The notes beneath the pieces are model-generated. The model was not told where the DNA came from. It saw only the letters and a program-made list of their open reading frames with translations, and made no database searches. The position numbers and the translations under genes are program-made. DNA of 64,000 nucleotides from Chara braunii (taxonomy: Eukaryota; Plantae; Charophyceae): positions 6,479,957 to 6,543,956 of the forward strand of contig BFEA01000007.1 of NCBI GenBank assembly GCA_003427395.1, read 5' to 3'. This document shows positions 21,927 through 54,550 of this stretch, one piece after another; the first letter of the stretch is position 1, and every line of letters starts with the position of its first letter.

Positions 21927-23029
21927 TGTCAGTCGGGGAGCTACCCTTTGTGCCAGGTCTCAGATATCAAGGTGCTTAGTGGTCCGAAGGCTGCCCCTTT
22001 CCGCCCCACTCCCCCGACACTGACTGTCTCAGCCTAGACTGGGTTCGGTAGCCTTAGCATTCCCCATGGTCACCCCCTCTACGACCCTTTGGCGCGACTC
22101 TGGCCTAGGCCTTCGCCCTGATCAGACTTGCGCCCTTAGTCCGATAGCGGTACGATCTGGCATGGAAAAAAATTACCGACGGACTCAGTTGCTAACGGAG
22201 AAAGGAACCCAGTTTTGAGTTGACAACGGGAGGGGGACGAACAGTTTGGGTTCGCGGAACTGCGGTTTGGTGAAGGCTAAGATTTGTTAAGTCCACGGGG
22301 CACGCATACCACGACATCAAGGCGGACAACAGTACTACAGAACTCAGTTCGGCGTTGGATAAACGGGTCTCCTCAAATTTCGGGAACTTAGTTCAGCGCA
22401 GAGGAGACAGAGTTTCTTGAGATTAAGGGACTTGGTTCGAAGCAGAACAAAACGGGAATGGGTTCGGTGAAGGGTAAAACAAGATTTTCCAAAGTCATTA
22501 AAACTCGGTATGGCGCAGAACAGAACTGCACCACATGCTCAGATGAGTCTCGAGCTTCAAAGTAAGGCAAACGCCTACGTGAAACTCAAATAAAACCCGG
22601 GGTGAAAAACGAAAAGGTTCGTATGAAGGCCGACCAAAAAAAGGACGTCTGGGAGCTTGACCCGAACCGTAAAGATCGAGTCTTCAGACTATGGTCCACT
22701 CTCCCTTTGTATCTACCGTTGGCAACAACCTCCCCTGTACTCGCGACTCAGCTTGTTCTTCTCTCCCTTTCTCTTACACCCTTTTTCTCTGGATAGCCTC
22801 TTTCCCTCTCCCTCGATACTCTCTCCTTCCCTCTCTCTCTCTCCCGGTACTCTCTCTCTCTCGGTACTCTCTCTCTCTCGGCACCCCTCCTCTACCTCTC
22901 TCGCTCTTTTCCCTCTCTCTTACACTCTTTCTCTCTAGATACCCTCTCTTTTTCTTCCTCCATACTCTCTCTCTTTCCCTCGGTACTCTCTCTCTCTCTC
23001 TACACCCCTCCTCTACCTCTCTCGCTCTT

Positions 23030-26684: not shown

Positions 26685-28350
26685 CTACATCCGTCTTTGT
26701 CTCCTCATTTTTCTCTCTCGCCTCTCTCTCTTTCGTTTCCTTTCTTCTCTCTCGCGTTTGGCTTTCAAGGCCTTCCTCAAAGCGCTTCGTCTTTCTTTCA
26801 TCCTGCGTTTTCCCCCTTGGTCGATATCACCGTCATTGTCCCTCGCCCTTTTCTTCCTCCTAGGCGTCTTTGGCAGGGAAGGTTTCCGAACCTTATACCC
26901 GTTCTTAGGTGGTTGCGAAGAGGCCCCTTGTTTGGATGTCTCCCCCTTCTCGTAGGTGACGGTTCCTCTTTCCTCGACCGACTCCTTTCCTTTCCCTTTC
27001 GGTTCGTCGCCACGGATCCCCCTCCATCGGAAAAGTTTGAGACGAGCCCCCGCGACAGGGTCTCGTAATCTAGCCCCATCTAGTTCGGCAAGAGGGTACG
27101 CTCCCCCATCCAATCTCTTCAGGACTCGATACGGCCTCATCCACCGATTTGCTCACATCTTGCTCCAAGTTTTTTCTAACGACGAATCGTACATCAAAAC
27201 GAGGTCACTAGTTCCTATCAGCTTTTGTCGGACCCGCAAATTCTTGTCCAACCTTTCTTTCCCTTTCAAAGGCTTTCATCCTTTTCTTCTCAATGTTCCT
27301 CCGTGCCTCGGTAAGTCCGGCGTCAAGATTTTCGACTATTTGTTGTATCCTCGCCTCTAACAGCTGAGTCCTCGTCATGTTGGTCTTCCAAGAGACAATC
27401 GTCCAAGTGTCGACGTGGAATTCGATGGGCAGCGTGCAGTGCCTACCGAACCAAAGCGTGTAAGGGGGATAACCTGTGCTTGCTTTGACCGTGATGTTGT
27501 CGGCCCAAATGGCATAGCGTAAGTACTTTGGTTATTGTTCCTCTCGCCCCTTGCACCATTTTGCTAATGCATCCACCAGCGTCTGGTGCCCTGTCTCGAC
27601 CGGAGCATTGCTTTGGGGGTGGTAGGTGGTTGTGTAGGTCGCCCTAATCCCGACTCTTTCCAATACCGCCTTGACCTTTTGGCTTAGGAACTCGGACCCC
27701 CTATCCATGACGATCTTCCTGACACATCCGTATCCCGCGATGTACTCTAGGAGAAATTCACTTACCTCCTCGACCGTCTTCTTTTTAATGGCCTTAGCCT
27801 CTACAAACCCTGTGAGGTCATCGCAGGCGTTAATGACATACCTAAGCCCGCCGACTCCTTTGGGCATAGTTACCAGGTTAACGTGGATCTTCTCGCATGG
27901 AACTGTGGGGAGCGAAGGTACAAAAAGTTCCTTGTAGCAAACTGTCGCCCTCTTTGGCAGGCCTCACAGGTCGAACAGTACTTATCGACTTCTCCGTACT
28001 ACCCATCCCACCAATAAAGCCTGCGGACTTTATTAAAAGTCCCCTTGACTCCCCGATGCCCCCCGACGCCTCCGTCGTGTAACTCCTCTATAACCGCCTT
28101 TCTCTCTTCCGGATCGCAAAGAACTCTCATGGGGATTGCGAACTTGGTGGGCCTCTTAAAGAGGTGGCCCCCTCACAGACAATACCCCAACGCCTCTCTT
28201 TTGACCGTCTTGGTGCCTTCTTCTCTACCGGCTACGTACAATCCTATGTTGCGGTACTTCCCATCGTAAAGTTTCGCGAGGAACGTCCTAGGGCTCTCGT
28301 CCTCTTCTCGGTTAGGCATTGTTACTTGTGCCTTGCTAAAGGCGACTTGC
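26685..28350 (-). pseudogene. pol: Integrase (HHCC, DDE core, GPY/F-like C-terminus, basic tail); contains stops
   Basis: ELHDGGVGGHRG...CSTCEACQ; CDDLTGFVEA...MDRGSEF...YHPQSNAPVE; RPYRVLKRLDGGAYPLAELDG. Confidence 0.92.
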
Positions 28351-28351
28351 A

Positions 28352-30102
28352 TTACCCAGTTCTTGGCCATAGATCGCGTTGTCTCCTCCAGTTTTGGATA
28401 CTCTTCCTCCCGGATCGGAAGCCTAGACAAGCCGTTAGCGACCTGGTTTTTAGCCCCGGAGATTCTTTTGACCTATAATCGTAGAGCCTAATGTGGATTA
28501 TCCACCTCCCAATAGTCGGGTCGGTCAGTGAGAAGTCCTTTTGGAGGACAAGGGCTACCGCGGTTGGGTCCACTCTCAGGAGGAACCTTCTCTCGTAGAT
28601 GTAGTGCCGAAAGGTTTTTAGGTAGTGCAATACCCCTAACACTTCTTTCTTGAACTGACTATAGTTTCTCTCAGCGGGGTTCAACGCCTTACTCTCAAAT
28701 TGCAGGGGTCTTTCTTTCCCATCCTGATCCTTTTGTGGAAGAAGTTCTCCTACAGAACATGACCCTGCGTCCGTAGAAACTACAAACGGGCGGTTCTCCT
28801 CGTCGTGGAAGTATGAAACGCCTAGGACTTGCCCTCCCTCGCGAAATTCCTCCTTGAGAATCTCCATAGCTGCGGCCTGATCGTCTCCCGAGACCCAACC
28901 TTCAACTTTCCTAAGCAGCTTTCTAAGGGGTTCCGCCTTCTCACTGTAGGATTTTATAAAAATCCTCCAGTAGCCCACCACCCCTAGAAACTGTCGCACC
29001 TCCGTGATCGATTTTAGCGGTGACGGCCATGTCATTAACTTTCCTAGTTTCTCAGAGTCGGGCCTCCGTCCGTCCCTGTCACTTATGAACCCTAGTATCT
29101 TGATCGAGGATACCGCCCGACGACTTTTTGTCCCACTCACAGTGAGGTTCGCATCGTCCAGTTTTTTTAGCACGCTCCTCACATCCGTCATGTGATCTAC
29201 CATGAATTTTCTGACCCCCGAAAAGACCTCCGCCTCATCCTTTTCAACCGGCCCTTTGATCGGGAAATCATCTAGGAAGACCTCCACCTTACCCGGAATG
29301 AACTCCTTGAGAACGGAGGTCATGGCCCTTTGAAAAACGGCTACGTCGTTGGTCCATCTCATAGGTACTACCATCATCTGCACCAACCCTAGGGGTGTGT
29401 GCATCGTGGTCATATGCCTCTCCCTATAATATAAAAGGATCTCGTCATATCCCGAGAAGAGGTCGCAGATCGAGTAGATGGATCGACCTGCCGACCCGTC
29501 CGCCAAGAGATCTACTTTCGATATTGATCCTATGTCCCTTATAGTAACCGCGTTGGTCTTTCGGAGATCCTGAATCCACCGAAGCTTGTTACTACCCCCT
29601 TTTCTAATGAAAACCATTTGCTGGAGTAGGCGCTATCACACGGCTCGGCCACGAAAGTCCGAATCTTTTCTTTTATAAAGGTCACGATTTCCTCCTTTTC
29701 CTTTTGGGCGTACTTCCACGGGGATCTATCTTTCCATGGAACGTGGAGGACAGTGCGGATTCTCGCGGGTTTGGCATACCCAGGGTCTATCCTCCCCCTT
29801 TCCGAATCATCAAACGTTATTACCTTGTCACAACCCCTAAAGATTGTGGCTATATACCTTTTTTCCTCGAAGGTGAGGTTCCCGTCCCCGATGTCCATCT
29901 TTGCCAACCTATCCGCCGTAATCCGTTGCCCCTCCGTTGCCTTCCGCTCTCGAATGACCTTTGCTATCTCCTCTTCCGATATCGTGGCTTCCCCTGTCCT
30001 GTCCTGGTTGACCGCGGCGGATTTTACTTTAACCGCCACAGTTTTATGCTTCCTACCTCCGCCGGCTAGAGGGATTCCCCCCAAAAATACAATCTTACGC
30101 AT
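28352..30102 (-). pseudogene. pol: Reverse transcriptase + RNase H, frameshifted near 29610
   Basis: LRWIQDLRKTN, DLFSGY, VFLDDF, VRQFLGVVGYWRIFI, STDAGS, ERNYSQFKKE. Confidence 0.95.
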
Positions 30103-30164
30103 CCACCAAATTCCTCTCCTTCATCCTCCTTTTCGTATCCGACTCCATTGATTATTATCCGGTC

Positions 30165-31552
30165 TCAAATCTCCTCGACTTCTACCCGACCGCCCGAAGG
30201 TTCCTTCTTGGAAGAGGGCGACTCTTCTAGGCGAACCTGGCACACCAATGACTGGACTTCTCTCCTCCTTGAAACATTGGTGCGGTTCTGCTCGTCATGG
30301 GCATCCACTGTCCTTAGGACCACCTGGATTTCGTCTAAACTTTGGATCGAGAGAGTTTGGCTTCCGTCCGGAAGGTCGACCGTGGTAATGTGGACCGCGC
30401 TCAACCATGTCCGACCAAGGATCAACTCTGACAAACACTCTTTTACAGAGAAAATTGGAATGGTAGTCTCTACCCCTGCGACCTCAATCACGGGGTTGTG
30501 GCAGACCCCTTCCGCCAGTTGAAGCTTGTTATCTGCTACCGCCATTGACATGGTGATTTCCCTATCCACTTCCAGAACCAGCTTCCTCGCAATGGAATCT
30601 CTACACACCGTCGATTTCGATCCAGTATCCACTAAGGCTCTCATCTTCTTCCCACTCACCACAGCTTGGAGCTGGCCACTTCCCAGTACATAGAATCTCT
30701 TGGCCTCTTCTTCCGAGAATAAATTTGTCGGCATCTCCTCCATGGTAATTCGAGAGGCCTGCACCTCCTCCTTAGCAGGTCCTTCCCCTAGAACGGTCAG
30801 CCCTCCGGTAAGCGGAATCCTCACCTTCTTAGTAATGCTCAAGAGTTCGTCTCTGATATTTTTGCTCGCCGCTAAGTTCTCCAGAAGGGTACATTGCATT
30901 GGTTGCATTAGAGTCCTCCGCAAGGGCGCAACCATGTCTATCTCGTCCAAGGTGCACTTCATTTCGAACTTCTTTGGTCCTCTCTTCCTTGACGATTTTG
31001 GTGATGTAGGATCTTCCCCCTTTCTTTCTTTCGCGGCTTTCGAGTCGACCATCGGTTGGTCATCGTCCCCACTCCTCTTTCCCCCGTCCACTATTGTGAC
31101 CTCCTTGCCTTTGGACGGCCCGACCCCCACTTGGGTCCTTACTCTTAGGCACGGTTCCTCTTCTTCAGACTTCCTCTCTACGAACTTGATGCTAGAGACT
31201 TGCGGCTCCCTTATGGACACACCACCCTGCGATTCCGTAATTTGGACGCGGGATGAGCTGTAAGCCCCGCCGACCTCAGGCTTCTTTCCCAGGCTTGCCT
31301 CTTGTAGGGCAATCCTCTTGTCCACATTTATTTTCATCGCGGGGTAGAAGGAGACCGCCTCTCCATCATCTCCCCACACGGCCAACTTATTCTCGTTCAA
31401 CTTTACCACTCCCAACCTTGGGGCTTCCGTGAGGTGAGGACATTCCCGCTTAATGTGACCATCTTCATTACAATAGACACACCCGCTCCGAGGCGGCGGG
31501 TTGTTAGGGCGAGGCCCCACTGGTGGCGCTGCCCCTATGGCACAAGCGGTTA
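30165..31552 (-). pseudogene. gag: Gag C-terminus (CCHC knuckle) + aspartic protease
   Basis: CVYCNEDGHIKREC; ALVDTGS...LILGRTWL. Confidence 0.93.
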
Positions 31553-31998
31553 TCGGGTAGCTGAAAATTAAGGAATGAAAATTCTGAAGTGAGAGTTTTG
31601 GGCAGTCTGAGAATCCTGAATAGTCCTGAAGTGGTAAAAGGTCTTAAGACCCTGAAAACCACTTATTTAGGTAAACTGCATTCTGAAGTGGTGAAGGGTG
31701 TCCTGAAGTGGTCAAGTGAAAGTCTTGGGCAGTCCGAAAATCCTGAATGGTCCCGAAGTGGTGAAAGGTTCGAAGACCATGAAAACCACCCTTCACCATT
31801 TGAGGATGCAGCCTGCCTAAACAGGTGGTTTTCAGGGTCTTCGGAGTTTTCACCACTTCAGGACCATTCAGGATTTTCAGACCTGAATGGTCCTGAAGTA
31901 GTGAAAGGTCTGAAAACCCTGAAAACCACCTTTTTAGGCAGGTTGCATCCTGAAGTGGTGAAGGTTGTCGTGAAGTGGTGATGAAAAATACAACTGTT
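31553..31998. mobile_element. 446-bp fold-back insertion in gag with 4-bp GTTA duplication
   Basis: gtta at 31549-31552 and 31999-32002; internal direct and inverted ~120-bp units (tcctgaagtggtgaa). Confidence 0.8.
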
Positions 31999-33572
31999 GT
32001 TAACCTTCTCTCCCCTATGGTCGTCGAAGGACCGGGCGGCTGCGAAGCCCTAGCCTGGCTTACCTCCGACCGAGCCCCCGTGGCCTTGGGTTGGAGAGGG
32101 TCTCCCCACCTTCTATCTCTCACGTCCTTCCAATGGGAATTCCCCAAATTAGGGCCCCGATGTCCTCCAATTTCTCGGTCATTTCTCCAATTCCCCTGGT
32201 TTCTTGTTGGTCCTCCTCCCCAACGTGGGCTGGGGGGTCCCGGTGGCGGCCTATCGTTGTCGCGAGGACCGTCGTTCCTTTGGGTGCGTATACTTCGGAG
32301 AGCCATGTCAAGGCTTTCCTTCATGTATTCCCGGACGTCTACTCCCCCTCCCGTAAAGACGACCTCGGCGACCTTCTCAAAATTCGTCGAGTCCCTGGGC
32401 CCCTTCTCGAGGATTTCTTTCCTCTTTTCCTCGGGTAGGTGTAACATAAACATGACACACCTATCCACTTCAGACAGCATCCCCCAATCTACCAAGGCTT
32501 GGGATAGGCGCTTGAACCTTCTAGTGAAGGCCACCAAGCTCTCCTATTCCCCCCTTGATACCCGGCGTAGCCCTTCTATTGTCGGAATCAAGTCATCGCA
32601 AGCGAAGGTCCGCAGAAGGCTACTCTTGAAGGTGTTACACCTCCCATCTATCGGGTATATTACCCTAATGGCCTGATCCAGTTCGGGATCCGAGTGCTGT
32701 ATGAAGTGGTCGATCCACTCCTTTTCTGATAACTTCTTTCGGAATGCATAACTTTCTCATTTTTCGACGAACCTCGTCACATCTCGCCCATTAAAGTAGA
32801 GTGCCTCGAGGCCCAGGTGTACATCGTAGTAGGGGACTCGTCGATCGTTATATCGACAGAAGTAGGGGCCTTCCGCTGGCCCGTCTAGTACCGGATCGTA
32901 GGGCTTGTACCAAACGAGGACTAGTTCCTCCATCTGCGATCGAGCCCCCGGAGGCCCCCAGGGTTCCTCCTCGTGGCGGCCTCTATCATTTGGTTTTTCA
33001 CGTTCCCAACGCGCTGGTCCTCGGCCCCTACACCCCCTCTAGGTGTCTCTGAACCCCCCCACATTTCTCCCTATTGCTTCCTCCATCATCCATGTAGGGT
33101 TCGTTTCTCGCCCGGGTCACCTTCGCGGTCCTCCGCCAGTCTTTCTCCGTTGCTCCTCTCCCAATTCTCTCCTTCTTAAGCTCCCCTCTTCATCCCTTCT
33201 AGGTGCCCAACATCCCAGCCTTTCACGCGGGGATTTTTGCCCCTCTCCGGCTCTCTCTTCCGCGTCCTCTTGATCTGCCCATCGGGTCTCAACAAGGAAG
33301 CCCTTCGAGGCCTCTGTCGTCCTTTCTCTCACTGGTACTCGCGGCTTCACCTCCCGGTGCAGACGTTTCTCGGTACTTGTTCGCTGCCTTGCGGCTCTTT
33401 CTCCGAGAGATATTTCCGGGCTCCTTACGGCCCTACCCATCGCCTCCATCCCTTCGGTCACCCCCTCGGTTGCCTTGCTTAACCTCGCTCCCAATTCGGT
33501 ATCTTTCTCGCCTTGCCCCATGTCAGTGGTCTCAGGTGGTTGGTAGTGTCTGGGGTCCACCTCACTCTCCAT
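31999..33572 (-). pseudogene. gag: Gag N-terminal/capsid region with in-frame stops
   Basis: FNGRDVTRFVEK...ESLVAFTRRFKRLS; in frame with the 30165-31520 ORF once the 31553-31998 insertion is removed; start uncertain. Confidence 0.8.
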
Positions 33573-34434
33573 GCACCCTATTGCTAACTTCTAGTCGCCC
33601 TCCTCGCTAGTGTCACTGTCCCGTTCTTGAACTTTTTTCTTCCTGACTTGACTCTCGATTTTCACTGTCGCCTGCAAATTCCTTGCTAGTTACGGTCCAC
33701 CAAGAGTCGCGCACTCGCTTCTCCTTGCAAGCTGCTAGCGCGAGATTGCCAACCTCAAGATTGAAAATACTCCTAATGCCTTCTTGAAAACACCGTTTAA
33801 TCAACTCTCTATCCACCTCTCTGGCCTGCCCTCGAAACAAAGGTTTGATAAATTCTCTGAGTAACGCCCACCACTCGAAGTCAGTATCTTCCAGCGATTC
33901 CTAGCATCGGGTGAACAACTCGGAGCCCTTCTCCTCTCCTAGGGGGAATTTTTCAGTTACCTGCCCCCTATTTTGAACCCTCCTCACTGCTACGTCATTG
34001 GGGTAGAGCAACCGGTAGTCCCAAGTAGGGATTTCCCAGTCCGGCCGTGAGCCGCATGTGGAATCTCTAGCCTTCCCCGGTATTCGACCTGTCCTCCACA
34101 CGTTCTTCAGCGGGGCCCCCTCTCAAAATTCTAAGCCAATCCAGCGCTCTTTTGGCGATGTCCAGGGGGTCTTTTCCTTCTGCTAATTCGGTTGCGAAGA
34201 CTTGTCTGTCGTAGTGAGACAGGAAGATTTCGGCCTTCCGCGTGCGAGTACCTCTTTCGAAAACTACTGAAAACCGAACAAGCGTCTCTCACCCGTAGAT
34301 CTCAAAGAATTCGACAACAGTCTCTCCCTCCTCTCTACTCTTGGAGAGGGTTACTCCATACCTACCCCTCGACTTCAAGGCTCGTTCCAAGGTTCCGACA
34401 GGGTTCCCCCTATCATATCTAATCATTGACAATT

Positions 34435-35029
34435 TTATCTTACCTGCGCTAACCTCTCGGCCGCCTCCGCCAACGAGTCTTCAGACCTCTCTCGAGCGCC
34501 CTCGCCTTGATCGTGTATTGCTTGTTGCAGGGTTTTTTCGTACTCCTCCTCGAACTTTCTCTCGACCTCTAGCAGCGGTTCTCTTCGCGTCCTTTGGAAC
34601 CGCACCCCTCCTGCCTCACTGACAGAAATCGAGAACCTTGCTAATGTGGTCCAGGAACTCCTTTTCCACAAGGCCAATCGCCGGATTTCAACAAGGAATT
34701 ATTTTTTTGCTCGAGCCGTCTCTCCCCAAGCCCCATAGCTAGTTCCGCACCTCCTTCTACCTCGACCTCAAACCCGCCGTCCCGAGTCTCCAACTCCCAA
34801 GTTATCGAATTTGAGCTAAAGCTCGCTCTCATACCTATCTTTCTCCCGAAAGCAGCTCCTCCTTTAAATCGTTGAATATCTTAACCGTCGATGTCTCAAG
34901 GGATTTGATCCGGTGTAAAGATCCCGGTCTGGCTCTCCTTTTCTCTTCCCAGCAGAGAGTCGGGATCCTATACAATTCCGCCCTCACCCTCTCTAGGCCC
35001 ACTAGTTCTCCTTCGTCAGGTTCGCTCAT
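34435..35029 (-). pseudogene. Decayed accessory ORF(s), Glu/Leu/Arg-rich
   Basis: Chained frames 35029-34835, 34832-34641 and 34677-34435. Confidence 0.45.
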
Positions 35030-35480
35030 GCCTCAAGTTCCTTCTCCGACATGCAATAGCGACCCGAATGAGATCCGAGGGGTCTAGCCCTTCCAAGCCT
35101 GCCTCACAGATTTCCCCCAAGTATCTCCACGAGACGGACAATACCCTCACGTTTCGACCCCAGCCTTCGAATGCGTAACCGAAGTCTTCTAAGGAGGACC
35201 CATTGTTCTGATGCGGATTGTGCAAACACCAAAACAACAGGGCGTACAAGTCTGACTCGGTGAACCGAAATTGATTCAAGATTGAGACTCTACGTTCCAC
35301 CGCTCTTTTGACCGCATCGGAGGGGTAGACTCGCTCGAAGATGAAGCGGGGAACTTCCACCGGCTGGCTGGTAATAAATAGCGGCACCTCTTCCCAACCT
35401 GCGTACTCCACTCGATACACCCTTTTGTACTTCTGGCGAGGCCTCACTTCCCCGACTATGCTCTCTAGACGACGTCTCAT
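35016..35480 (-). CDS. Accessory ORF (154 aa; PxF[VI]F...C motif family)
   Basis: ATG 3 nt after the previous stop; PRFIFERV...FTESDLYALLFWCLHNP. Confidence 0.65.
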   Translation of the reverse strand: MRRRLESIVGEVRPRQKYKRVYRVEYAGWEEVPLFITSQPVEVPRFIFERVYPSDAVKRAVERRVSILNQFRFTESDLYALLFWCLHNPHQNNGSSLEDFGYAFEGWGRNVRVLSVSWRYLGEICEAGLEGLDPSDLIRVAIACRRRNLRHERT

Positions 35481-35483
35481 GGC

Positions 35484-35768
35484 TCACGCGTTTAAGAGAG
35501 GGTCCTCCCCTAACTTCAGACTTTGAATTACCTCGAGGAGTCCCTCCTTCGAGAGGAAGATCTTAGCTTCCCCGATCACTAAGCCTTTTTCAATACCCAC
35601 TGTCAATCGGACAAACGCCTTTTCCTGGCGGATTTCGGACACTTCCGTTAGAACGATTCGTGTTAGAACTTCCAAACTTGCCTTCGGTAGTGTGACGCGA
35701 ACGACCACTCCTGCCTCCTCGATAGGCTCCACCGAGGCCCAAAGGGTCCCCGGAATCCTTCTTATCAT
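35484..35768 (-). CDS. Accessory ORF (~94 aa)
   Basis: TGATG stop/start overlap at 35770-35766. Confidence 0.6.
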   Translation of the reverse strand: MIRRIPGTLWASVEPIEEAGVVVRVTLPKASLEVLTRIVLTEVSEIRQEKAFVRLTVGIEKGLVIGEAKIFLSKEGLLEVIQSLKLGEDPLLNA

Positions 35769-36031
35769 CACCTCGTCTGAGGCTCGTACCCCCTACGGTT
35801 TGTTACTTGTTCTTCCCCGAAGAGACGAGCGTAGGGGACGTCAGCGACGTGTGCCCTTACTCCTTCGAACTCTCTCAATCGCTCCAAAATCCCCAACAAT
35901 TCTCTCTCTCCCGGTATTTCCGAGTCCACACACCGGGTGTAAAGCCAGAACAAACCCAAAGTTCGGACCCCAAACCGATGGGCAGACCGGAGCACTTCTA
36001 CCACCCTCTCTTCTGAATCTCGTAGGAGTGT

Positions 36032-36412
36032 TCATGCCAAAAAGTTTGGCAGAGCCACGTGGAGTACCTTCGAGGCGTGGGGGATTTCTCCCGGTTCAGC
36101 AAACGCCACTAGTGTTGATAATTCGAAGGTGCCTTCCTCGTAACCTTTCAGGACTAAGTCGTTAGTCACCTGCCTAGCCAATTCTCGGTACCCCGTGTGT
36201 ACCTCCCGGTCGGTGACCAATCCCCTCCAGACCTCGGTCCACGAATCGTCGTCCATAAAAATTGTCGCGTGTATCTCGAGAAACCTGCCGATATGCGGCG
36301 GACTACCCCTTCGCACTCCTTCCTGCCACGTCAATCTACACGCCCTAACCCACACGTAAGCGCCCTCCTTAATTAATCCCCCCTTCTCATCACTCATACA
36401 ATAAGGTGTCAC
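36032..36412 (-). CDS. Accessory ORF, 5' end probably frameshifted
   Basis: Globular-looking 126 aa; its stop overlaps the next ATG (ATGA). Confidence 0.55.
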   Translation of the reverse strand: MTPYCMSDEKGGLIKEGAYVWVRACRLTWQEGVRRGSPPHIGRFLEIHATIFMDDDSWTEVWRGLVTDREVHTGYRELARQVTNDLVLKGYEEGTFELSTLVAFAEPGEIPHASKVLHVALPNFLA

Positions 36413-36591
36413 TCGAGGGTCCCCCGGGACCAGGATTTGGCCCCCCTCACTGGCCTCTATCGTTTCGATACCTCATTGTTGCTAAGAGCGAATCTGACCA
36501 TCTACCACGGCCGTCTGAACACCCACTCATAGTAGGTCTTCGGGGAGAGGGTAACAAACTTCTCTAGGGACCCAAGCCTCCTATAAATCCC

Positions 36592-37164
36592 CTAGAGCTT
36601 TGTTCGAGGAGGGGCCTCATGGCAGATACAATGGGTGTAAAGTAGCCACAAGGGTCTAAAAGGCAAACCCAAACTCCTCCCTCTTTCTAGGAGCCTCACT
36701 ATCTTATCCTCGTTTGATCCTAAGAACACAAAACATGGAGTCCTTACGGTCACCGGATAACCCGCCCTTGGAAGCTCACCCTCCCGCGCGAATCTTTCCG
36801 CTTTTATCGCCACAAAACAAAACTCCTTCCGAGTCATAACTATCCACCTCCTTTTTACTTCTCTCACCTCTTGGAGCAATAGATCCAGCCCACCTCCTTG
36901 GCCTAAGACCAGGTGTACCACGATCCTCGCCCAAGCGGCTGGTTCGATGAAGATTATAGCGGTGACTTTGAGGCCTGCCCCTGTCGCTTCCTTCCTCACT
37001 TCCTCTAACTCTATCCACACAAAATTTTTCCCCGTAGTGACTTCTCCACCCTCCAATTTCCTCCAATTGGGGGCCTCCCCGTTACTCGGGACCAGGCTAC
37101 AAATCCCTCGCTTGTCTAAGGGGAACTTGACAAAACGACCGAGCTCCTTGTCAAAAAGAACCAT
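36592..37164 (-). CDS. Accessory ORF (190 aa; probably extended to ~36502 before a nonsense change)
   Basis: TGA-ATG junction; PCFVFLG...FRPLWLLYTHCICHEAP. Confidence 0.65.
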   Translation of the reverse strand: MVLFDKELGRFVKFPLDKRGICSLVPSNGEAPNWRKLEGGEVTTGKNFVWIELEEVRKEATGAGLKVTAIIFIEPAAWARIVVHLVLGQGGGLDLLLQEVREVKRRWIVMTRKEFCFVAIKAERFAREGELPRAGYPVTVRTPCFVFLGSNEDKIVRLLERGRSLGLPFRPLWLLYTHCICHEAPPRTKL

Positions 37165-37521
37165 TCATGATCTCTCTCCGATTCCAAACACCCTTTGGTA
37201 ACAGTAATCTCGCCCACCTTCATGATCTCTCTCCGATTCCAAAGAGATTCTCCTGCGAATCCGGTCGACCCTAACCACATATGACACTGGGTTATTTACA
37301 CAATAGGAGAAGTACCAATGGAGTGACTGAAAAGACAGTCCCCTCCTTCTCTCCCGCCTAATGGATTTTACGACCTTCTCGTACGAGGCCCCCTCCCCAC
37401 ACACTCTCCGGAAGACAAAGGACGGAAAGATGGCTTGGACACACCCCGTAGCGCAAGGGTACTCCTTGTCCCGAGCACAAGTTACCCGCAAGCGGAGCGG
37501 CAGATGGTGCCGAAGGGGCAC
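37165..37521 (-). CDS. Small accessory ORF (PxF[VI]F...C motif family)
   Basis: PSFVFRRV...FQSLHWYFSYCVNNP; stop abuts the next ATG. Confidence 0.6.
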   Translation of the reverse strand: MPLRHHLPLRLRVTCARDKEYPCATGCVQAIFPSFVFRRVCGEGASYEKVVKSIRRERRRGLSFQSLHWYFSYCVNNPVSYVVRVDRIRRRISLESERDHEGGRDYCYQRVFGIGERS

Positions 37522-37554
37522 TTCTTCAAAAACCTATTTTAGGATAGGCCCTAC

Positions 37555-37905
37555 TCACACCTCCCAATGATCCGCCCGATACCACCCTAGTGCCCAGTGG
37601 GTGATGTATTCCACCCAGGCCTCTTGACCCAAGTAGACTGTGCCTTCCGCACGAATCGCTGTTTGTCGGGCCTTCTGCCCGTTCCTAGGTTTATTCCTGG
37701 TCTACTGATCCCCCTCCCAAATTCCCACGACGAAACGCGCCCAGAGAAAAAAACCCTTCTCGAGTTCCACACCTTTTTCGTGCCCGACTAAATATCTCTC
37801 CGTACGATGGTCCAAAGGGACGTTGAAGCACTCTCTCTCCTTGTGAAGGTCGGCCTTCTCGATTTGGATTCTACCGTCGCCAATCGCTTCTACAATCCTA
37901 ACCAT
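37555..37905 (-). pseudogene. Small accessory ORF with an internal TAG at 37704
   Basis: ATG overlaps the end of the previous ORF; the frame stays open after the single stop. Confidence 0.5.
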
Positions 37906-38273
37906 GCCCTTCCCTGGCTTTGGACCACCTCCTCAATAATCCCTACTAACACCTTCCAACCGTCCGACCCGTCGAGGTAGGCTTCCAGTATCGTTGGGGC
38001 AGGTCGCTCTCCTCGCCGAAAGGTCCGGCAACCCAGCGTATAAAAATACCGAATCCCGAAATTTCTTGAAAGTTCCCTCTTTAGCTGAGCATGACCAACC
38101 GCCTCTTCCCAGCTATCAAGGAAGTCTTCCCCTCGATCCGTCCCTTCTTCCACATTGAGTGCTAGATCAAAATCTTCGGCCCATAGATAATAGTCGTAAC
38201 ACCATACGTCCACACCCCCACGACTACCCATGATAATGCCTGTCGGCTCAACCTCGATAACTCCTAGGCTCAT
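37890..38273 (-). CDS. Small accessory ORF of unknown function (127 aa)
   Basis: ATG 7 nt after the previous stop; strong protein-level similarity to the upstream ORF. Confidence 0.75.
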   Translation of the reverse strand: MSLGVIEVEPTGIIMGSRGGVDVWCYDYYLWAEDFDLALNVEEGTDRGEDFLDSWEEAVGHAQLKRELSRNFGIRYFYTLGCRTFRRGERPAPTILEAYLDGSDGWKVLVGIIEEVVQSQGRAWLGL

Positions 38274-38280
38274 AGGCCCC

Positions 38281-38631
38281 TTACTCCCCCACTATCTCCT
38301 TTACGATCGCGACCAGCACTCTCCACCCCTTTGATCCGTCGAGATACGCGTTCGGAATTACGAGTGCGGGTCGCCCGCCCCTAGGGTAGGTCCGGTACCC
38401 CAAAGCGTAGAAGTATCTAAACCCGTACCCCCTCACCTCAGCTCTTTCTATGCGAGAGTAACCGACTGCCTCCTCCCATCCACGAAGGAAATTTTCTCCT
38501 TGATCTTGCCCTTCCTCTACGTAAATGGCAACGTCAAAATCTCCCGTCCATAGACGAAAGCTGTAGCACCACACGTCGATTCCTCCGTAGGTACTCACAC
38601 TAGTCCCTTCCGGAACCGCCTCTAGGCTTAT
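38281..38631 (-). CDS. Small accessory ORF of unknown function (paralog of 37890-38273); start codon probably mutated ATG->ATA at 38631
   Basis: GGIDVWCY...DFDVAIYVEEGQDQGENFL aligns with the neighbouring ORF. Confidence 0.7.
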   Translation of the reverse strand: MSLEAVPEGTSVSTYGGIDVWCYSFRLWTGDFDVAIYVEEGQDQGENFLRGWEEAVGYSRIERAEVRGYGFRYFYALGYRTYPRGGRPALVIPNAYLDGSKGWRVLVAIVKEIVGE

Positions 38632-40084
38632 GTGCCCATCCTAATCAAGGAAAATCTCCTTCGTTGCCTTTACTTTGGTCACTCGAGAGACCACCCCTAC
38701 CCTGCAAGGAGAAGGCACCTGAGAGCCCAGCGGGATCAAATGGACCAGAGAAGGAACGTCGTCTCACTCGGCTACCCTCCTGTCCTCCCCCGCTGAAAGG
38801 TCCTCCCACTTCCAAGCATAGAAACTAGCCGCGAACACAGGTTATCCCCGAGGAAGGGTGGCAACCCCCTCCCCGTAGTCGGACCGAAGTCACACACCAG
38901 TGCCCTATGTCCCCCACCGAACCGACCTCTAGTCCTAAGTTAGCCTATCCGGCACCACGCCCCAACTCAGCCTACCTCGAGCGTGGAATTACCCGGGTCC
39001 CATGACTTTTATCTGCCTATCGATCGATAATCACTAGCCTACCTACTCCATCTCATTCTCCTCCTTGGATCGCGAACTCTTCTCACTTTGTTCCCTTCTT
39101 TCTCTTCTCCACCGTCTGACTCTTTTCTCTCTCGGAATCCGAATATTTAATCAGGGTTTCACAAAAAAAGGGTGGGGAAGCAGAGCTTTAGCAAGAGAGT
39201 ATCTCAGGTTTGGCCACTTTAAATACGTACCTTGCAGTCTTCGACTTTTTCAGTATTCGTTCTCGTAGTCGCAGTAGTCCTCGAGATCCGAGTCCGAGAA
39301 ATCGACAAGGCACCAGTCCACTCAAGACTCGGCCTCCGATTCCTCGTCCAAGGTACCCCACGTATCTCTTCTCTCTTCTTCCCGAATTAGTTCCCTACCC
39401 CTTTCGTTCTCTACGGCGGTTGAAGTTCCCTCGACCCTTTGTCCCGGAGCCCGAAGCACTACCCTCCTCGCCCCCAAGTCCCGAACAGCACCCAAGTGAG
39501 AACTTCGCTCCCTCGCGGGAGTCGCGTCCCATGCAGGTATTGTCCACAACCCGCGTGGGTCGAGAACAGAAAACCCAGCCCCCACTTGAGAAGCTCGTTC
39601 CCTTGTAGGAGTCTCGTCCCGTGCGGGCGACGTCCACAACCCGTGCGGGTCGAGAATATTAGGAAAACCCTTTTCTCTTTGGACCAGCCCTCTTGGATCA
39701 CAAACTGATGGCGTCCCTGGGCCCCCTCGAACCCCCGTTTCCTCTCTCCTCCTAGTGTCCACTATCTCTTCCCCACGCGCGGACCCACTCACGCAATTTT
39801 CCTTGACGACTCTTCGTCCCCCTCTTTGGTTGTTTTTCACCCTCATTTAAACCCAATAAGCAAACTGTTTTACCCTCTTAATTAGTGAATTTTTAGAAAT
39901 AAATGCACAAAAAAAATCACGTTGTCGAGCGCATCGGCCCTCACGTGAAAACGAGGGCCCTCTCGGCTATGTCACGCAGGAGTGTACCTAAAAACATAAC
40001 GTTTAGAGACAACTCGGGAACGATGCATACTGTTCCGCGAACCACCGAGACGGACGCGGTTGCTTCGCTCCTTCGCCGCTCTAG

Positions 40085-41166: not shown

Positions 41167-41679
41167 CTACAATAAATCCAAACGTGCGAGTTCGTCGTCG
41201 TCGAAAATCAAAGTAGACCTTCGTCCACATCGCATGACTTTCACAATCCGAGTATTATAGAAGGAGGTCATCCGAGAGGCTAGTCTCCAAACTATAACTC
41301 GGAGAGGTCGATTAAGTCCAAACAGGTGTCGAGTCTCTGTGTCCCGGATCCGGACGACGCTGAAACGCCTACCGGACGAGGTAATCTTGATACTCACAAT
41401 GACTCGAGAGAGACATTGAAGGTTACCCGCGCAGTGGAAATACAAAGTATAACCGTAAAGCTCGTCGGAAGTTCGATCCATGTTGGCTCTGAAATCTGCG
41501 CGAGTATTAGGAAAAAATCCCTCGCCACTTTGAAGCAGTCCAACGAAGACGAACCAGTCGATAGGAGATCCATCTCTTACTCGTAAAAGTCGCGCTGCAC
41601 TCCTGATGAGATCCTCCTCGGGTGTATCACGGACCAGAAGATACCTCGGGATTGTCAAGTCTCGTCGTGCTCCAGGCAT
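41167..41679 (-). CDS. Hypothetical protein (170 aa), ATG directly after a splice acceptor
   Basis: gactgatttggattcgttctgatacgcag|ATG; 23 nt after the previous stop. Confidence 0.65.
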   Translation of the reverse strand: MPGARRDLTIPRYLLVRDTPEEDLIRSAARLLRVRDGSPIDWFVFVGLLQSGEGFFPNTRADFRANMDRTSDELYGYTLYFHCAGNLQCLSRVIVSIKITSSGRRFSVVRIRDTETRHLFGLNRPLRVIVWRLASRMTSFYNTRIVKVMRCGRRSTLIFDDDELARLDLL

Positions 41680-41702: not shown

Positions 41703-42215
41703 TCAGTCACGTAAAAACTCCTCAAGTTCTTCCGCTTCATTTTCCAATTCATGATCATATAATGTTTCAGCCCCTATAATTGCGTACCTATTGGCACGTA
41801 TCCGCTCCGCGTAGTATATGCCAAAAATTGAGCCTTGTCGCTTGTTCAGCCAAAGCACGTAACGGACGAACATCAACCTTATTTCAGGGATTTCGTCCAC
41901 TCGTGTGTTGATCTCATGGGGCTGCAACACCACCAGGTTCATATTGACGAAGTGACGCTCGGGCAATGGCGGTGCGAACTCGTAATGAAGAATATCCATG
42001 CCGTTATCACTCCTGAAAACAAGTCGCCTAGGGGGTCTTTGCGCACTACCACCCCAAAATCGCGGAACGTCCTCCTCAGAATATAATTCTGACAGATTAT
42101 AAATAAGTCGGCCTATCCTTTCTACCCTCACTCTATCACGCCTTTGGAGTTCAACTCTCTCTGTTGCCGCATCACGATTGTTGAAAAGGAATAGTTTCGT
42201 GGTTCTCATAGCCAT
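41703..42215 (-). CDS. Hypothetical protein (170 aa), ATG directly after a splice acceptor
   Basis: ttctttttctttcag|ATG; intact, non-repetitive ORF. Confidence 0.65.
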   Translation of the reverse strand: MAMRTTKLFLFNNRDAATERVELQRRDRVRVERIGRLIYNLSELYSEEDVPRFWGGSAQRPPRRLVFRSDNGMDILHYEFAPPLPERHFVNMNLVVLQPHEINTRVDEIPEIRLMFVRYVLWLNKRQGSIFGIYYAERIRANRYAIIGAETLYDHELENEAEELEEFLRD

Positions 42216-44119
42216 CTGAAAGAAAAAGAAGCCAAATGTGTTTTGAGTTAAACTTTTGCCCTTGAGTATTATTCGGTTTTTGTCTTCCTTACAGCCCGTG
42301 TTTCTTATGACACGACTAACCACGTCAGGAGTATCTAACCGTACTCCGTTCAGCTAATAGGACATGAGTCAGGCTGCTTGTGACGCCAACTCTCCATACA
42401 GTAGTGGTACCTAGGATGACCACTTAAAACAGGATTGCTAAGGCAATTTTCCTTTTTCGCAAGGCATCAAGAAATAATTTTCTTCCGTGTAGATGCCTTT
42501 TCCATTACCCTAAGAGGTGGTCTGGGATACTTCTTCTCCTCGCCCGAGTATAAAACTCGGATCTCAGAAGTCGGGCCGTCTCCACCGAATCGGCATAGTA
42601 CCCCCCCGCAAGCGATCCGCAAAGCGGTCCACTCTGAGTCGATAACAGGGCCGGCCCCTAAGGCAACGAACCCCCGCCCCAGATGCCTCCTAGAAAAAAA
42701 GAAAAACACCTACACGGCAGACAAGTAAAGTCTTGCTGCATAGCGTCAAAGTAAACTTAGACGAAGAAAGAGGAATCGTAGAAAGATAGAATCATTCAGA
42801 CTGACAGGCATAGATGGAAGAGGGTTATTCGGGAAAGAATGGGTAACCTCAAGAATAAGTCTAAACCAAGTTGAACTTCTCTTCCTTATGCTCGCTTCGT
42901 TTCTCGTCGTTTTCTCTTTCTTTTATTTATACATAGAACACAAGCACAAAGATGAAAAGTCAATCATTCTTTCACCGCCATAACCCTCATCCATTTCAGT
43001 CCACATGTCGTACCTACAGTCAAAACCCAACGACACACAGACCACCATGCATTCCTTTACCATTGTCAGACTCCCAGTTATACACGCAAAAACACACATC
43101 CTCTTCCCTTTTTCAATGAACATTCAGTGAAAAACAGGTCAAAGCAAGTGTGGGTTCACTCAAGTGTGAAGGGAACTGAGTCAATTTAACTGACTGACCT
43201 TGAGTGAAATTGAAGAAACGGCCCACTCAGGAAGACCGTGTAAATCACACTCAAGAGAAGACGATCGTCACAATGACTCGCCCGCAAAACAATCCACACC
43301 ACTCCTTAGAACGATCGCTTGTCGCGACACCCTGCGTCGCCGCAGTAAAATTATCGCAGCGCTCCCGCACCACAGCTGGTTAAACCGGAGTAACCGTCGA
43401 AAGATTTCGACAGTGCTACCGCACCACTACCGAAAAACCCGGAACCGCCCCCGTAGAGAACCCGGTGGCGCTTCAGCACCACCACTGAAAAACCAGGCTT
43501 GTTGCTGCAAAAAAAAAAAAAACGGCGGCGCTTCCGCACCACCGCTGAAAAACCAGGCCTGTTCCCACAAAAAAACCGGCAGTGCTTCCGCACCACCGCT
43601 GAAAAACCAGGCGCGCCACTGCAAAAACACCGGCAGCGCTTCGGCAGCACTCTTGTACTACCACAGTAAAAGCCTGTGCCGCCGCAGCAAAATTTCGGCA
43701 GCACTTTCGTACTACCGCAGAAAAAGTCTGTGCCGCCGCAGCAAAATTTCGGTAGCACTCTCGTACTACCGCAGTAAAAGCCTGTGCCGCCTCAGCAAAA
43801 TTTCGGCAGCACTCTCGTACTACCGCAGTAAAAGTCTGTGCTGCCTGCCGTAGTACCTCAGTGCCACTGGGCCTGTCCCGTGGGACCAACACCAGTCAAA
43901 GGGGAGGGGAACAGAGTGCTCCCTGCCTTGGCTATGGCTGCCCAGTCCTCCTCCTGGTGGTCCTCTGCAGTCCTCCAGCTCCTCCTCACATTGCCTCAGC
44001 AGTCCTCCAGCTCCTCCTCACGTTGCCTCAGCAGCAGCTTCAGCAGCCACAACACTCAAGTGTGCCCGTCACACACTGGCAGCACGAGTGCTTTGTGTGG
44101 CAGCTGGGGGGCAGCTGCC

Positions 44120-44128
44120 TTTTTTATA
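44120..44128 (-). promoter_or_regulatory. TATA box candidate (second copy at 50030-50038)
   Basis: Minus strand ccaaTATAAAAAAggc in a GC-rich context, pointing toward the accessory ORFs. Confidence 0.45.
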
Positions 44129-46190
44129 TTGGCTGAAGAGAGCTAGACGTCACTCCATCCCCCAGGCAAAAACGCGGGATCACAGTGAGCCCTTGATCTG
44201 GCCTAGATTCAGGGCTGACTGTGGCCGCACCACAGCCACAGCCTTAGTGTGGGGCAGTTTCTTTAACTGCCCTATTTTCTTTTTTTTTTTCTTTTTCCCA
44301 GCTCTCTCGGAATCTGGCGAGATAGCTGGTTTCCTGCCATTTCCAAAAGTGTTTTTCTTTTATTTTTCTGATAAGGGGTTGGAAAGTTACAGTCCGTTAC
44401 AGTTTGATGTATCTGGACCCTTTTTCCAGGGCAGATACATCGGGGAAAAGGTTGTATCTAGCCTTTTCCTTAGCGGCCCTTAATTTTCCAGGCTCCCTGC
44501 AAAAACGAGAGCCTGACAGTTTCCTCTGGCAGCTTGTGCCAAAGGTAGGACCACGTGAGGACAAGTGTCCTCACAGAAAATAAAGAAAAGAAAAAGAAAA
44601 ACTAACTTTCTTATTCCTAATGAACCTGGCTTTTACCTCAGCCAGGTTCGTGTTGTTGCATGCAATAGCCTTCCCTTATTTCCCTCTGCCTTCCCCTGAA
44701 AAAGGGGCCCCTGAAAAAGGGCAGGGCAGTTGGCAGGTTGGGAGGAGTAGGACCTCCCCCTCCCAACTCCCACGTCCCTCTCTCTCATTCTCCCACGCGA
44801 GTACTGTCGGCCGTGAGATTCAAGATCTCGCGGCCACAGTGTGTTGGGCAAAAAAAAAAAATGAAGTGGGAGTTTTGTGCTCCCACACAGTCCTGAAGGA
44901 CTGTTTTTTTCCTACCATGAGGCAATTGCCTCGTTCGTTCTTTTTTTCTNNNNNNNNNNNNNNNNNNNNNNNNNNNNNNNNNNNNNNNNNNNNNNNNNNN
45001 NNNNNNNNNNNNNNNNNNNNNNNNNNNNNNNNNNNNNNNNNNNNNNNNNNNNNNNNNNNNNNNNNNNNNNNNNNNNNNNNNNNNNNNNNNNNNNNNNNNN
45101 NNNNNNNNNNNNNNNNNNNNNNNNNNNNNNNNNNNNNNNNNNNNNNNNNNNNNNNNNNNNNNNNNNNNNNNNNNNNNNNNNNNNNNNNNNNNNNNNNNNN
45201 NNNNNNNNNNNNNNNNNNNNNNNNNNNNNNNNNNNNNNNNNNNNNNNNNNNNNNNNNNNNNNNNNNNNNNNNNNNNNNNNNNNNNNNNNNNNNNNNNNNN
45301 NNNNNNNNNNNNNNNNNNNNNNNNNNNNNNNNNNNNNNNNNNNNNNNNNNNNNNNNNNNNNNNNNNNNNNNNNNNNNNNNNNNNNNNNNNNNNNNNNNNN
45401 NNNNNNNNNNNNNNNNNNNNNNNNNNNNNNNNNNNNNNNNNNNNNNNNNNNNNNNNNNNNNNNNNNNNNNNNNNNNNNNNNNNNNNNNNNNNNNNNNNNN
45501 NNNNNNNNNNNNNNNNNNNNNNNNNNNNNNNNNNNNNNNNNNNNNNNNNNNNNNNNNNNNNNNNNNNNNNNNNNNNNNNNNNNNNNNNNNNNNNNNNNNN
45601 NNNNNNNNNNNNNNNNNNNNNNNNNNNNNNNNNNNNNNNNNNNNNNNNNNNNNNNNNNNNNNNNNNNNNNNNNNNNNNNNNNNNNNNNNNNNNNNNNNNN
45701 NNNNNNNNNNNNNNNNNNNNNNNNNNNNNNNNNNNNNNNNNNNNNNNNNNNNNNNNNNNNNNNNNNNNNNNNNNNNNNNNNNNNNNNNNNNNNNNNNNNN
45801 NNNNNNNNNNNNNNNNNNNNNNNNNNNNNNNNNNNNNNNNNNNNNNNNNNNNNNNNNNNNNNNNNNNNNNNNNNNNNNNNNNNNNNNNNNNNNNAGAAAA
45901 ATTAAAAAAAAAATCCAACTTACCTCAGAAAACGGCTCGACGTTGTAGAAACGGCGCCGTTTTCTTCAGGGACTATAAGTCTCTTTTTTCTCAGTGCGCC
46001 ATCTGGCGCAGTTCGTTTTTGCTTGTTTGTTTGTTTGTTTGTTTATTTGTTTGTTTGTTTGTTTGTTTGTTTTTTAGAATTCTCGTTGGCTTATGCCAAC
46101 GATCGTGCTGTGTTCGTGGGTTCACCCACGAACTGTTGCAATGAAGACCCGAATTCGAGTCCAAATGGACTCAAAAAATAATATAAAAAA

Positions 46191-46248
46191 AAAATTGACT
46201 ATTTCTCGATTTATGCGTGTCATCCTTGCGCAGGGGCCATGCTAATCT
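46191..46248 (-). ncRNA. U6: U6 snRNA 3' half (no 5' stem-loop or ACAGAGA box)
   Basis: Minus strand reads AGATTAGCATGGCCCCTGCGCAAGGATGACACGCATAAATCGAGAAATAGTCAATTTT, the plant-type U6 3' half as I recall it, followed by a T run. Confidence 0.93.
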
Positions 46249-50833: not shown

Positions 50834-50899
<66 letters not shown>

Positions 50900-51216
50900 T
50901 CTCTTACTTTTTCTTTTCGTTTCTTAGTCCTTTCCCCGTTTTTTTGTGCAACGGTCCTCCTTCAAAGGCCACGAACGGGGAGGAACAAGAGGGGAAAAAA
51001 AAAAAAAAAAAAAAACAGAAAAACAAAATACAAAAACTTACCTGAAATCGTCGTTTTGCGGCCGCAGCAACAACACTGCTTTGGCCACTGCTCGTGACTG
51101 TATTCTTCCGCGTTCCCGCGAAAGATTCATTCGATTATGCTCATCCTTTAGTTGGCCTCCTCGTCGAGGAGCCAACCTCAGGTAGGTTGGCAGGTAGGTA
51201 GGTAGGTAGGTAGGTA

Positions 51217-51282
<66 letters not shown>

Positions 51283-51466: not shown

Positions 51467-51534
<68 letters not shown>

Positions 51535-53568: not shown

Positions 53569-53586
53569 TCCCCGGCAACGGCGCCA
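53569..53586 (-). promoter_or_regulatory. Primer-binding site, tRNA-Asp
   Basis: TGGCGCCGTTGCCGGGGA, 3 nt after the LTR end ...CTGACA; complementary to the plant tRNA-Asp(GUC) 3' end, as used by Athila-type elements. Confidence 0.9.
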
Positions 53587-53589
53587 TTT

Positions 53590-54550
53590 TGTCAGCCGGG
53601 GAGCTACCCTTTGTCTCTGGTCTCAGATATCAAGGTGCTTAGTGGTCCGAAGGCTGCCCCTTTTCGCTCCACTCCCCCGGCACTAACTGTCTCAGCCTAG
53701 ACTGGGTTCGGTAGCCCTAGCATTCCCCATGGTCACCCCCTCTCCAGCCCTCTTGAGCCGGTCGAGGCCACGAGAGAAAGCCCATCCCCGACAACGGTGT
53801 CATTTTGCCAGTCGGGGAGCTACCCTTTGTCCCTGGTATCAGATATCAAGGTGCTTAGTGGTCCGAAGGCTGCCCCTTTTCGCTTCACTCCCCCGGCATT
53901 AACTGTCTCAGCCTAGACTGGGTTCGGTAGCCCTAGCATTCCCCATGGTCACCCCCTCTCCGGCCCTTTGGCGTGGCTCTGGCCTAGGCCTTCGCCCTTA
54001 TCAGACTTGCGCCCTTAGTCCAATAGCGGTACGATCCGACACCGAAAAGAATTACCGACGAACTCGGTTGCCAATGGGGAAAGGAACCCAGTTTTGAGTT
54101 GACAATGGGAGGGGGGCGAACAGTTTGGGTTTGCGGAACTGCGGTTTGGTGAAGACTAAGATTTGTTAAGTCCACGGGGCACCCATACCACGACATCAAG
54201 GTGGATAACAGTACTACGGAACTAAGTTCAGCGTTGGATAAAAGGGTCTCCTCAAATTTCGGGAACTTGGTTCAGCGCAGAGGAAACATAGTTTCTCGAG
54301 ATTAAGGGACTTGGTTCGAAGCAGAACAAAATGGAACTGGGTTCGGTGGAGGGTAAAACAGGATTTCCCAAAGTCATTAAAACTCAGTCTGGTGCAGAAC
54401 AGAACTGCACCACATGCTCGGATGAGTCTCGAGCTTCAAAGTAAAGCAAACACCTACGCGAAACTCAAATAAAACCCGGGGTGAAAAAATGAAAAGGTTT
54501 GTATGAAAGCCGACCAAAAAAAGGACGTTTGGGAGCTTGACCCGAACCGT
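53590..54550 (-). repeat. 3' portion of the 5' LTR, with a ~217-bp tandem duplication of the LTR-end/PBS junction
   Basis: Matches 21927-22670; ~53536-53752 is repeated at ~53753-53969 with a degenerate second PBS. Confidence 0.85.

Follow-up and report, generated by a model that had tools for sequence, protein, structure and literature searches.

Extra open reading frames (ORFs) of plant Ty3/gypsy elements are heterogeneous and mostly unexplained (PMC7264820; PMC6317226), and Ogre elements are described as carrying one or two of them (PMC6431247). MDG1-group elements are reported to have two ORFs (sORF1 and sORF2) upstream of gag (10.1101/2025.03.14.642691), and the VANC protein of VANDAL DNA transposons carries DUF1985 and DUF287 (PMC5735166). 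Among viruses, rice tungro bacilliform virus (RTBV) has upstream ORFs without AUGs, and a short upstream ORF (uORF) is harmless to its downstream translation; together with the badnaviruses, it keeps upstream ORFs free of internal AUG and tolerates short uORFs (PMC5902531). We analyzed a 64,000-nucleotide stretch of the charophyte Chara braunii (contig BFEA01000007.1, positions 6,479,957 to 6,543,956; “the window”), in which an accessory array lies directly 5' of a decayed Ty3/gypsy gag-pol on the minus strand. The array is a variant of the long terminal repeat (LTR) retrotransposons with extra ORFs and contains two protein families that have no known relatives. We consider it probable that a single RNA carries its nine genes, most of them duplicated, and that ribosomes translate them by leaky scanning combined with reinitiation. 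Literature searches on Chara LTR elements and on multi-ORF paralogous leaders showed no account of such an array, although supplements outside that scope may mention it.

The cistrons, all on the minus strand, follow one another in the order A1, A2, U1, U2, U3, U4, f, C, U5, and then gag, and seven of the nine accessory genes fall into two families. Coding sequence occupies 4836 of 5019 nt (96%), and the gaps from A1 to gag are 7, -16, 0, 0, -1, -14, 2, 8, and 40 nt. Eight of the nine junctions are thus within 16 nt and four within 2 nt, where the chance per junction is 0.22 and 0.035, respectively. The two single genes are ORF f (34835..35029; 64 aa, with an open 62-aa orthologue on L002, a contig from another copy of the element described below) and ORF C (34435..34832), which has a frame change near 34700 in this copy and is a single open 158-aa ORF in L002, being present also in the Chara gene model P0008.

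Family A consists of A1 (38281..38631) and A2 (37890..38273), the latter an acidic protein of 127 aa (isoelectric point, pI, 4.5). The start codon of A1 is lost in the window copy; the gene model P0016 has a Met at the position of 38631 and is 78% identical over 64 aa. That these two ORFs are tandem paralogues, as proposed in the initial annotation of this DNA, is borne out by their alignment at 58% (z=53.5, 0 of 2000 shuffles). Over 112 codons, they are 55% identical, the proportion of synonymous sites that differ (pS) is 0.80 and that of nonsynonymous sites (pN) is 0.26, giving a pN/pS of 0.32 (Fisher p=8e-18), with 35, 29, and 65 differences at the three codon positions. Profile comparison finds no relationship between family A and family B, a metagenome scan with family A gives no match, and word-index searches with A2 and ORF 35016 return no homologue.

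Family B comprises five paralogues of ~220–270 codons spanning 37905–33613: U1 (37165..37905; 246 codons, three in-frame stops), U2 (36502..37164; 220 codons, one in-frame stop at 36592), U3 (35768..36501; an in-frame stop at 36032 and a frame change near 36475, inferred from the protein P0010), U4 (35016..35768; 250 codons, one in-frame stop at 35484), and U5 (33613..34426; two stops and two frame changes here, continuous in proteins P0009, P0011, and P0013). The annotation had recognized three members, ORFs 37165, 36592, and 35016, and missed the paralogues at 36501–35768 and 34426–33613. Its boundaries also need redrawing: ORFs 37165 and 35016 are the 3' parts of U1 and U4, genes of ~250 codons split by in-frame stops, and ORF 36592 continues past its stop. 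In a six-frame self-comparison, neighboring ORFs share a frame and homology continues through the stops, which explains the uneven pairwise scores of the three ORFs as given: 37165 and 36592 are clearly related (z=10.7, 0 of 2000 shuffles), 37165 and 35016 less so (z=2.9, 30 of 2000), and 36592 and 35016 not significantly (z=-0.3, 1266 of 2000). The idea that the stops mark true gene ends was rejected in the case of U3 and U5, and it is unlikely to hold for U1, U2, and U4. The U3 stop is private to the window copy, with ~90% of the aligned depth differing at 36034 (three DNA runs, one sample), and U5 orthologues align across the U4 stop in a single frame (E 1e-10 to 8e-8). An exact 25-nt direct repeat, with copies 55 nt apart, lies at the U1/U2 junction (37164–37243) and is a candidate junction signal or local duplication.

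When the stops are read as X, 7 of 91 pairs in the paralogue scan reach p<0.02: every pairing among U1, U2, and U3 is significant (p 1e-7 to 3e-12; U1–U3 across the stops, 2e-9), U4 matches both pieces of U5 (7e-5 and 2e-4), and U1–U4 by itself is weak (4e-3). The U1–U2 and U4–U5 groups are joined by profiles that include rows from other copies (hhalign 96.3%, E=1.8e-9), and the three-way homology is therefore significant at this level; earlier comparisons of the two groups, made before those rows were included, gave weak values (E=0.046 and 0.0018). The first family B profile scored U4 at 23.1 bits (0 of 300 shuffles) but gave low scores to two of the three U5 orthologues (17 and 8 of 300), and none of six control ORFs is significant against either group profile. 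The motif on which the annotation had based its trio is present at the places given, and a loosened form, chosen post hoc, matches only those three ORFs in six frames; as written, it matches none of six relatives from other copies. A shared core, E-[VLIYF]-[PK]-x10-P-x-[FW], occurs in 10 of 10 sequences, followed by a later Cys in the members reaching that far. Orthologues are 64–82% identical and paralogues 23–30% (tree without U3), and the duplications therefore predate the spread of the copies. The proposed growth by internal gene duplication is supported by the paralogy of both families, and the array appears to have been built largely by ancient tandem duplication.

We identified other copies of these genes by searching a five-row family B profile against 1.84 billion proteins, which gave nine matches: three U2 orthologues (P0007, P0008, and P0015, at 50–58%), the three U5 orthologues, one U3-like protein (P0010), the distant P0014, and one false match. 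The last, P0012, is made of repeats, ends in a secretion-sorting tail, has no match in the window, and was dropped. Seven of the nine, as well as the sole family A match (P0016), are Chara braunii gene models, and an exact look-up of window ORFs matched 0 of 10. In P0008, U2 is followed by C, the end of U5, gag, and protease, as in the window order, and P0016 joins A1 to the pol of this element, which it matches at 71–79%. A metagenome scan added two overlapping contigs, L001 and L002 (395/395 identical in the overlap), which represent one other copy at ~67% DNA identity; P0008, P0015, and L001 preserve both the array order and its linkage to gag. The end of U4, f, C, and the start of U5 are all open frames in L002, L001 has one stop in U5, and the L002 junctions (U4/f, f/C, and C/U5) measure -20, 4, and 8 nt vs. 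-14, 2, and 8 nt in the window. Protein profile searches and a viral scan with U5 found no relatives outside these repeats. Residues ~95–385 of P0014, a Chara gene model, hold two distant family B units ahead of a gag-like stretch (labeled by eye), which suggests that another LTR lineage has an array of this type.

Comparison of the window with this other copy gives pN/pS values of 0.23–0.44 for six accessory segments (p 8e-7 to 4e-28), relative to 0.91 for two shifted-frame controls and 0.42 for the gag N terminus. By gene, the values are 0.29 for the 3' part of U4 (against L002), 0.29 for f, 0.28–0.44 for C, and 0.23–0.33 for U5 (against L001 and L002). The accessory ORFs A1/A2, U4, f, C, and U5 are thus genes kept by purifying selection, and real protein coding, claimed at the outset from protein-level conservation, is established at the codon level, including the 0.32 of the A1/A2 pair. 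The description of the set as diversifying is not supported here; all measurable ORFs are under purifying selection and the paralogues split long before the copies in the tree.

The best-supported unusual feature of the array, overlooked in the initial annotation, is the combination of its tight junctions with a purge of AUG and Met codons. Internal Met residues number 6 of 1643 in the array vs. 37 of 1770 in gag-pol (p=3.5e-6), and 2 of 1908 vs. 32 of 1216 in the accessory and gag-pol parts of other copies, whose rows are non-independent. Out-of-frame ATGs are reduced to 22 where 43.6 are expected (0 of 2000 codon shuffles), compared with 49 vs. 44.3 in gag-pol, and antisense CAT shows no depletion (36 vs. 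33.8 expected). Among the 64 trinucleotides, ATG ranks second lowest in the array and 61st in pol. The ORFs that begin at leftover non-start ATGs are short, with a median of 13 codons, and four of the eight such ATGs between 35450 and 36620 stand at sites where most other copies differ. Start contexts have A at -3 in none of the nine intact starts (eight cistrons and gag), and only U1 combines a purine at -3 with G at +4.

We infer polycistronic leaky scanning because the purge is sense-strand specific and strongest in frame, and because stop-start reinitiation or separate mRNAs need no Met-free proteins. In such a mechanism, 40S subunits would scan through the gene bodies on a single polycistronic RNA, which we hold to be quite probable. 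In-frame AUGs would capture scanning subunits and yield long truncated products, in keeping with their ~6- to 25-fold purge, whereas out-of-frame AUGs would give rise to short ORFs after which scanning resumes, and these are merely halved; reinitiation at the tight junctions would then serve the next cistron. The array spans 5 kb and nine AUGs, far beyond the 900 nt of RTBV, and gag therefore probably needs reinitiation, shunting, splicing, or an RNA of its own. The inefficiency of nine leaky starts also favors a different arrangement, in which real genes are each expressed from a separate RNA, either spliced or subgenomic, or else purely by termination-reinitiation of the stop-start kind, with no scanning of the bodies. 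Junction gaps of 0, 0, and -1 nt suit termination-reinitiation, and MDG1 elements are reported to produce a short sORF1 RNA via early polyadenylation (10.1101/2025.03.14.642691). Neither route, however, needs Met-free bodies, and Met makes up 0.1–0.4% of the array proteins vs. 2.1–2.6% in gag-pol; moreover, a pyrimidine-rich splice acceptor is absent before eight of the nine starts, with a partial one before A1. We therefore regard these routes as rather unlikely and retain leaky scanning with reinitiation. Raw poly(A) runs from other samples weigh neither way, with depth over the array of at most 1.5 on both strands in run X6, near zero in X5, and zero in X7.

Several observations weigh against a nine-gene array read by leaky scanning. 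The other-copy proteins are automatic gene models able to skip stops, they are non-independent (four are U5-like and two U2-like), and the other copy seen as DNA is one only. Coverage at the U4 stop is too thin to call that stop private, and the same applies to the U2 stop, at the edge of the stretch. Backing for the starts from other copies extends to A1, U2, f, C, and U5 (U3 approximately, by P0010), and the starts of A2, U1, U4, and gag rest on the window copy. In the A1–A2 part, ATG is not depleted at the trinucleotide level (9 vs. 9.8), and leaky scanning over nine AUGs and 5 kb would cover five times the RTBV span (900 nt). The mechanism is deduced from sequence, the structure models are of low quality, and none of the results points to a function.

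The absence of a recognizable domain, noted from the outset, is upheld: Pfam finds none in the array ORF pieces, the family B parts of the gene models, or the three open U5 orthologues, PHROGs give nothing for the array better than E=0.03, and sequence searches of the PDB give nothing below E=0.05. No catalytic motif is evident by eye. Structure models are poor (predicted local distance difference test scores of 41.6 and 50.2), and fold searches with these low-confidence models reach at best Z 5.5 (rmsd 9.0 over 71 aligned residues), with no Foldseek match at E<=0.001 and no viral fold match. In the ESM Atlas, A2 has its top matches, at 0.92, among unnamed clusters that are mostly from phages, the DNA mimic DMP12 coming at rank 22, and the top match of U2 scores <0.9; these lie below the recognition threshold and are leads only. 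The maximal hydropathy over 19 residues, our only test for membrane segments, is 0.25–1.19 in eight of nine sequences, and the U2 segment that reaches 1.82 is not hydrophobic in its paralogues. The products are likely soluble, nonenzymatic helpers of the element, as judged from these sequence properties.

As leading guess for their role, albeit a tentative one drawn by analogy, the proteins could be binding adaptors directed against host silencing or RNA decay. The broader proposal of the initial annotation, a diversifying set of factors for host interaction or anti-silencing, for which VANC would be a parallel, is likewise doubtful. It draws on the lineage restriction of these fast-evolving soluble proteins under selection, with paralogues 23–30% identical, on the basic character of U1, U2, and U4 (pI 9.0–9.7), and on the frequency with which retroelement accessory genes act in this way (PMC7264820). 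On the other hand, the array proteins belong to no Pfam family, and hence carry neither DUF1985 nor DUF287; they have no basic nuclear-signal runs, positive selection is without support, and tandem arrays with a motif that could make them targets did not come to light. With no VANC domain and no confident fold, the argument for a host-interaction or anti-silencing role is one of analogy. A translation transactivator among the array proteins is less probable still, and some role other than adaptor, transactivator, or particle and movement function is at least as probable as the adaptor guess. Proteins for cell-to-cell movement or particle structure, env-like or similar to the MDG1 sORF2 fusogen, would suit the location upstream of gag, as described for the MDG1 sORFs, and plasmodesmata are present in charophytes. 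The low hydropathy of eight of the nine sequences, the U2 segment that its paralogues do not share, and the lack of a viral fold match among the low-confidence models make this role quite improbable.

Turning to the element itself, Pfam matches on the minus strand follow the order gag and then protease, reverse transcriptase, RNase H, and integrase, which is the Ty3/gypsy order. Gag with an N-terminal extension (32050..33572) contains several stops and is 64% identical to P0008 residues 480–925; it is followed by a zinc knuckle and aspartic protease (30165..31520; PF00098, weak, PF13975, and PF13650), a broken reverse transcriptase and RNase H (28352..30120, with the two domains at 28352–29632; PF00078 and PF17917, 73–79% to P0016), and a broken integrase (26685..27963; PF00665). 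As the polyprotein is interrupted by stops and frameshifts, the window copy is dead and decaying, and its differences from most other copies (15 synonymous and 19 nonsynonymous, p=0.07; 34 classified among 40 of 75 sites) are in keeping with largely neutral decay. Pfam finds no second, archaeal-type RNase H in the pol pieces or P0016 and no chromodomain after the integrase in 26685–27152, the window copy being decayed. Within gag, a ~95-nt direct and inverted repeat array at 31530–32010 has extreme aligned depth (~98,000) and is likely a very high-copy small insertion.

A pair of LTRs with primer-binding site and polypurine tract brackets the array, also on the minus strand: a candidate 3' LTR with adjoining polypurine tract (21928..22728), which is 92% identical to 53806–54550 (Kimura two-parameter distance 0.085) and is likely the 3' LTR of this element, and a truncated candidate 5' LTR with a primer-binding site, presumably for tRNA-Asp, at 53571..54550. 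The 5' LTR is separated from the array by 15 kb of other repeats, and the assignment of the pair to this gag-pol is therefore a candidate only. This distance, together with a high-copy repeat that starts at 39970, would suit an array lying outside the retrotransposon, be it an independent repeat, DNA captured from a host or virus, or a noncoding duplication. We consider that very improbable in view of the codon-level selection, the conserved order and linkage of the array to gag (P0008, P0015, L001) and its linkage to pol (P0016), the absence of relatives outside these repeats in the searches above, and an aligned depth that continues from the array into gag. The summed depth of aligned DNA contigs over the array is 150–350 in run X1 (single contigs ~6–14), which indicates tens of element copies, although depth is not a copy number.

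Upstream of A1, a 174-aa Met-free leader ORF (39322..39846, minus strand), for which no orthologue was seen, is a possible tenth cistron. The high-copy LTR-like repeat at 39970–~42373 begins with TGTCAC, has a possible 4-of-5 target duplication, and is 71% similar over 200 nt to LTR-like repeats at 8683–9867 and 20744–21924; it is a candidate solo LTR or the element's own 5' LTR. Adjoining ORFs on the minus strand at 41167–41679 and 41703–42323 (170 and 206 aa) have no Pfam or PHROG match, normal Met content, and no relation to families A and B, and their region has ~10 times the depth of the array. Farther along, two U6 snRNA fragments (Rfam RF00026; 46188–46249 and 52237–52298, minus strand) sit in a ~5.8-kb tandem duplication (42581–47050 vs. 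48322–53111, 91–95%) and possibly represent a U6-derived retrocopy or a short interspersed element (SINE) within the leader of an LTR element. A type III hammerhead ribozyme (58 bits; 51762–51815, plus strand), with a similar stretch near 51620–51650, is possibly a Penelope-like or retrozyme remnant, and tandem arrays of 91-nt and 92-nt units (~15 and >30 copies) occupy 58571–63365.

Extra ORFs in plant LTR retrotransposons are an acknowledged puzzle, and the known examples have one or two. A leader with nine selected cistrons and two internal families would be among the richest in genes of any LTR element, and it would mean that retrotransposons can expand accessory genes as viruses do. The AUG purge offers a testable handle on the way in which many cistrons are served by one eukaryotic RNA. 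Annotation is affected as well: in Chara gene models, these ORFs are merged into spuriously long “genes.” More speculatively, and with doubt prevailing, we can picture a charophyte LTR lineage with a virus-like operon, in which about nine accessory cistrons, multiplied by internal duplication into two new protein families, would be read from genomic RNA over 5 kb before gag, one family would act as a TAV-like reinitiation factor and/or a counter-defense set diversified by paralogy, and the system would be shared by the distant Chara lineage of P0014.

Set against the described systems, as far as the cited descriptions go, the Chara element is closest in setting to Ogre, Tat, and Athila, which are likewise large Ty3/gypsy elements, most copies of which have conserved extra ORFs whose function is not known, and for which extra ORFs 5' of gag in sense orientation form a recognized class. 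It differs in having nine ORFs rather than the one or two of Ogre, in lacking by Pfam the plant mobile, Transposase_28, and Athila ORF-1 domains of Ogre ORF1, Retand, and Athila, and in its internal paralogue families; most of its cistrons fall below the 250-codon cut-off of the REXdb survey. The Drosophila MDG1 group similarly has small selected ORFs upstream of gag, carried on unspliced full-length RNA, but two instead of nine, and MDG1 sORF2 is transmembrane and fusogen-like, whereas the Chara proteins are predicted to be soluble; no relation in sequence between the two sets was noticed, although no comparison was aimed at it. Like VANC, the Chara proteins are transposon-borne, fast-diverging accessory proteins, a likeness seen in sequence alone; they belong to another transposon class, are much smaller, and have no DUF1985 or DUF287 by Pfam. 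Abutting, AUG-cleared cistrons before a capsid–reverse transcriptase polyprotein recall RTBV and the badnaviruses, and the reinitiation mediated by TAV in cauliflower mosaic virus (CaMV). No movement-protein or TAV domain of the RTBV or CaMV kind was found in the Chara array, however, and the element is an integrase-bearing LTR retrotransposon rather than a caulimovirid, with a span of 5 kb compared with 0.9 kb.

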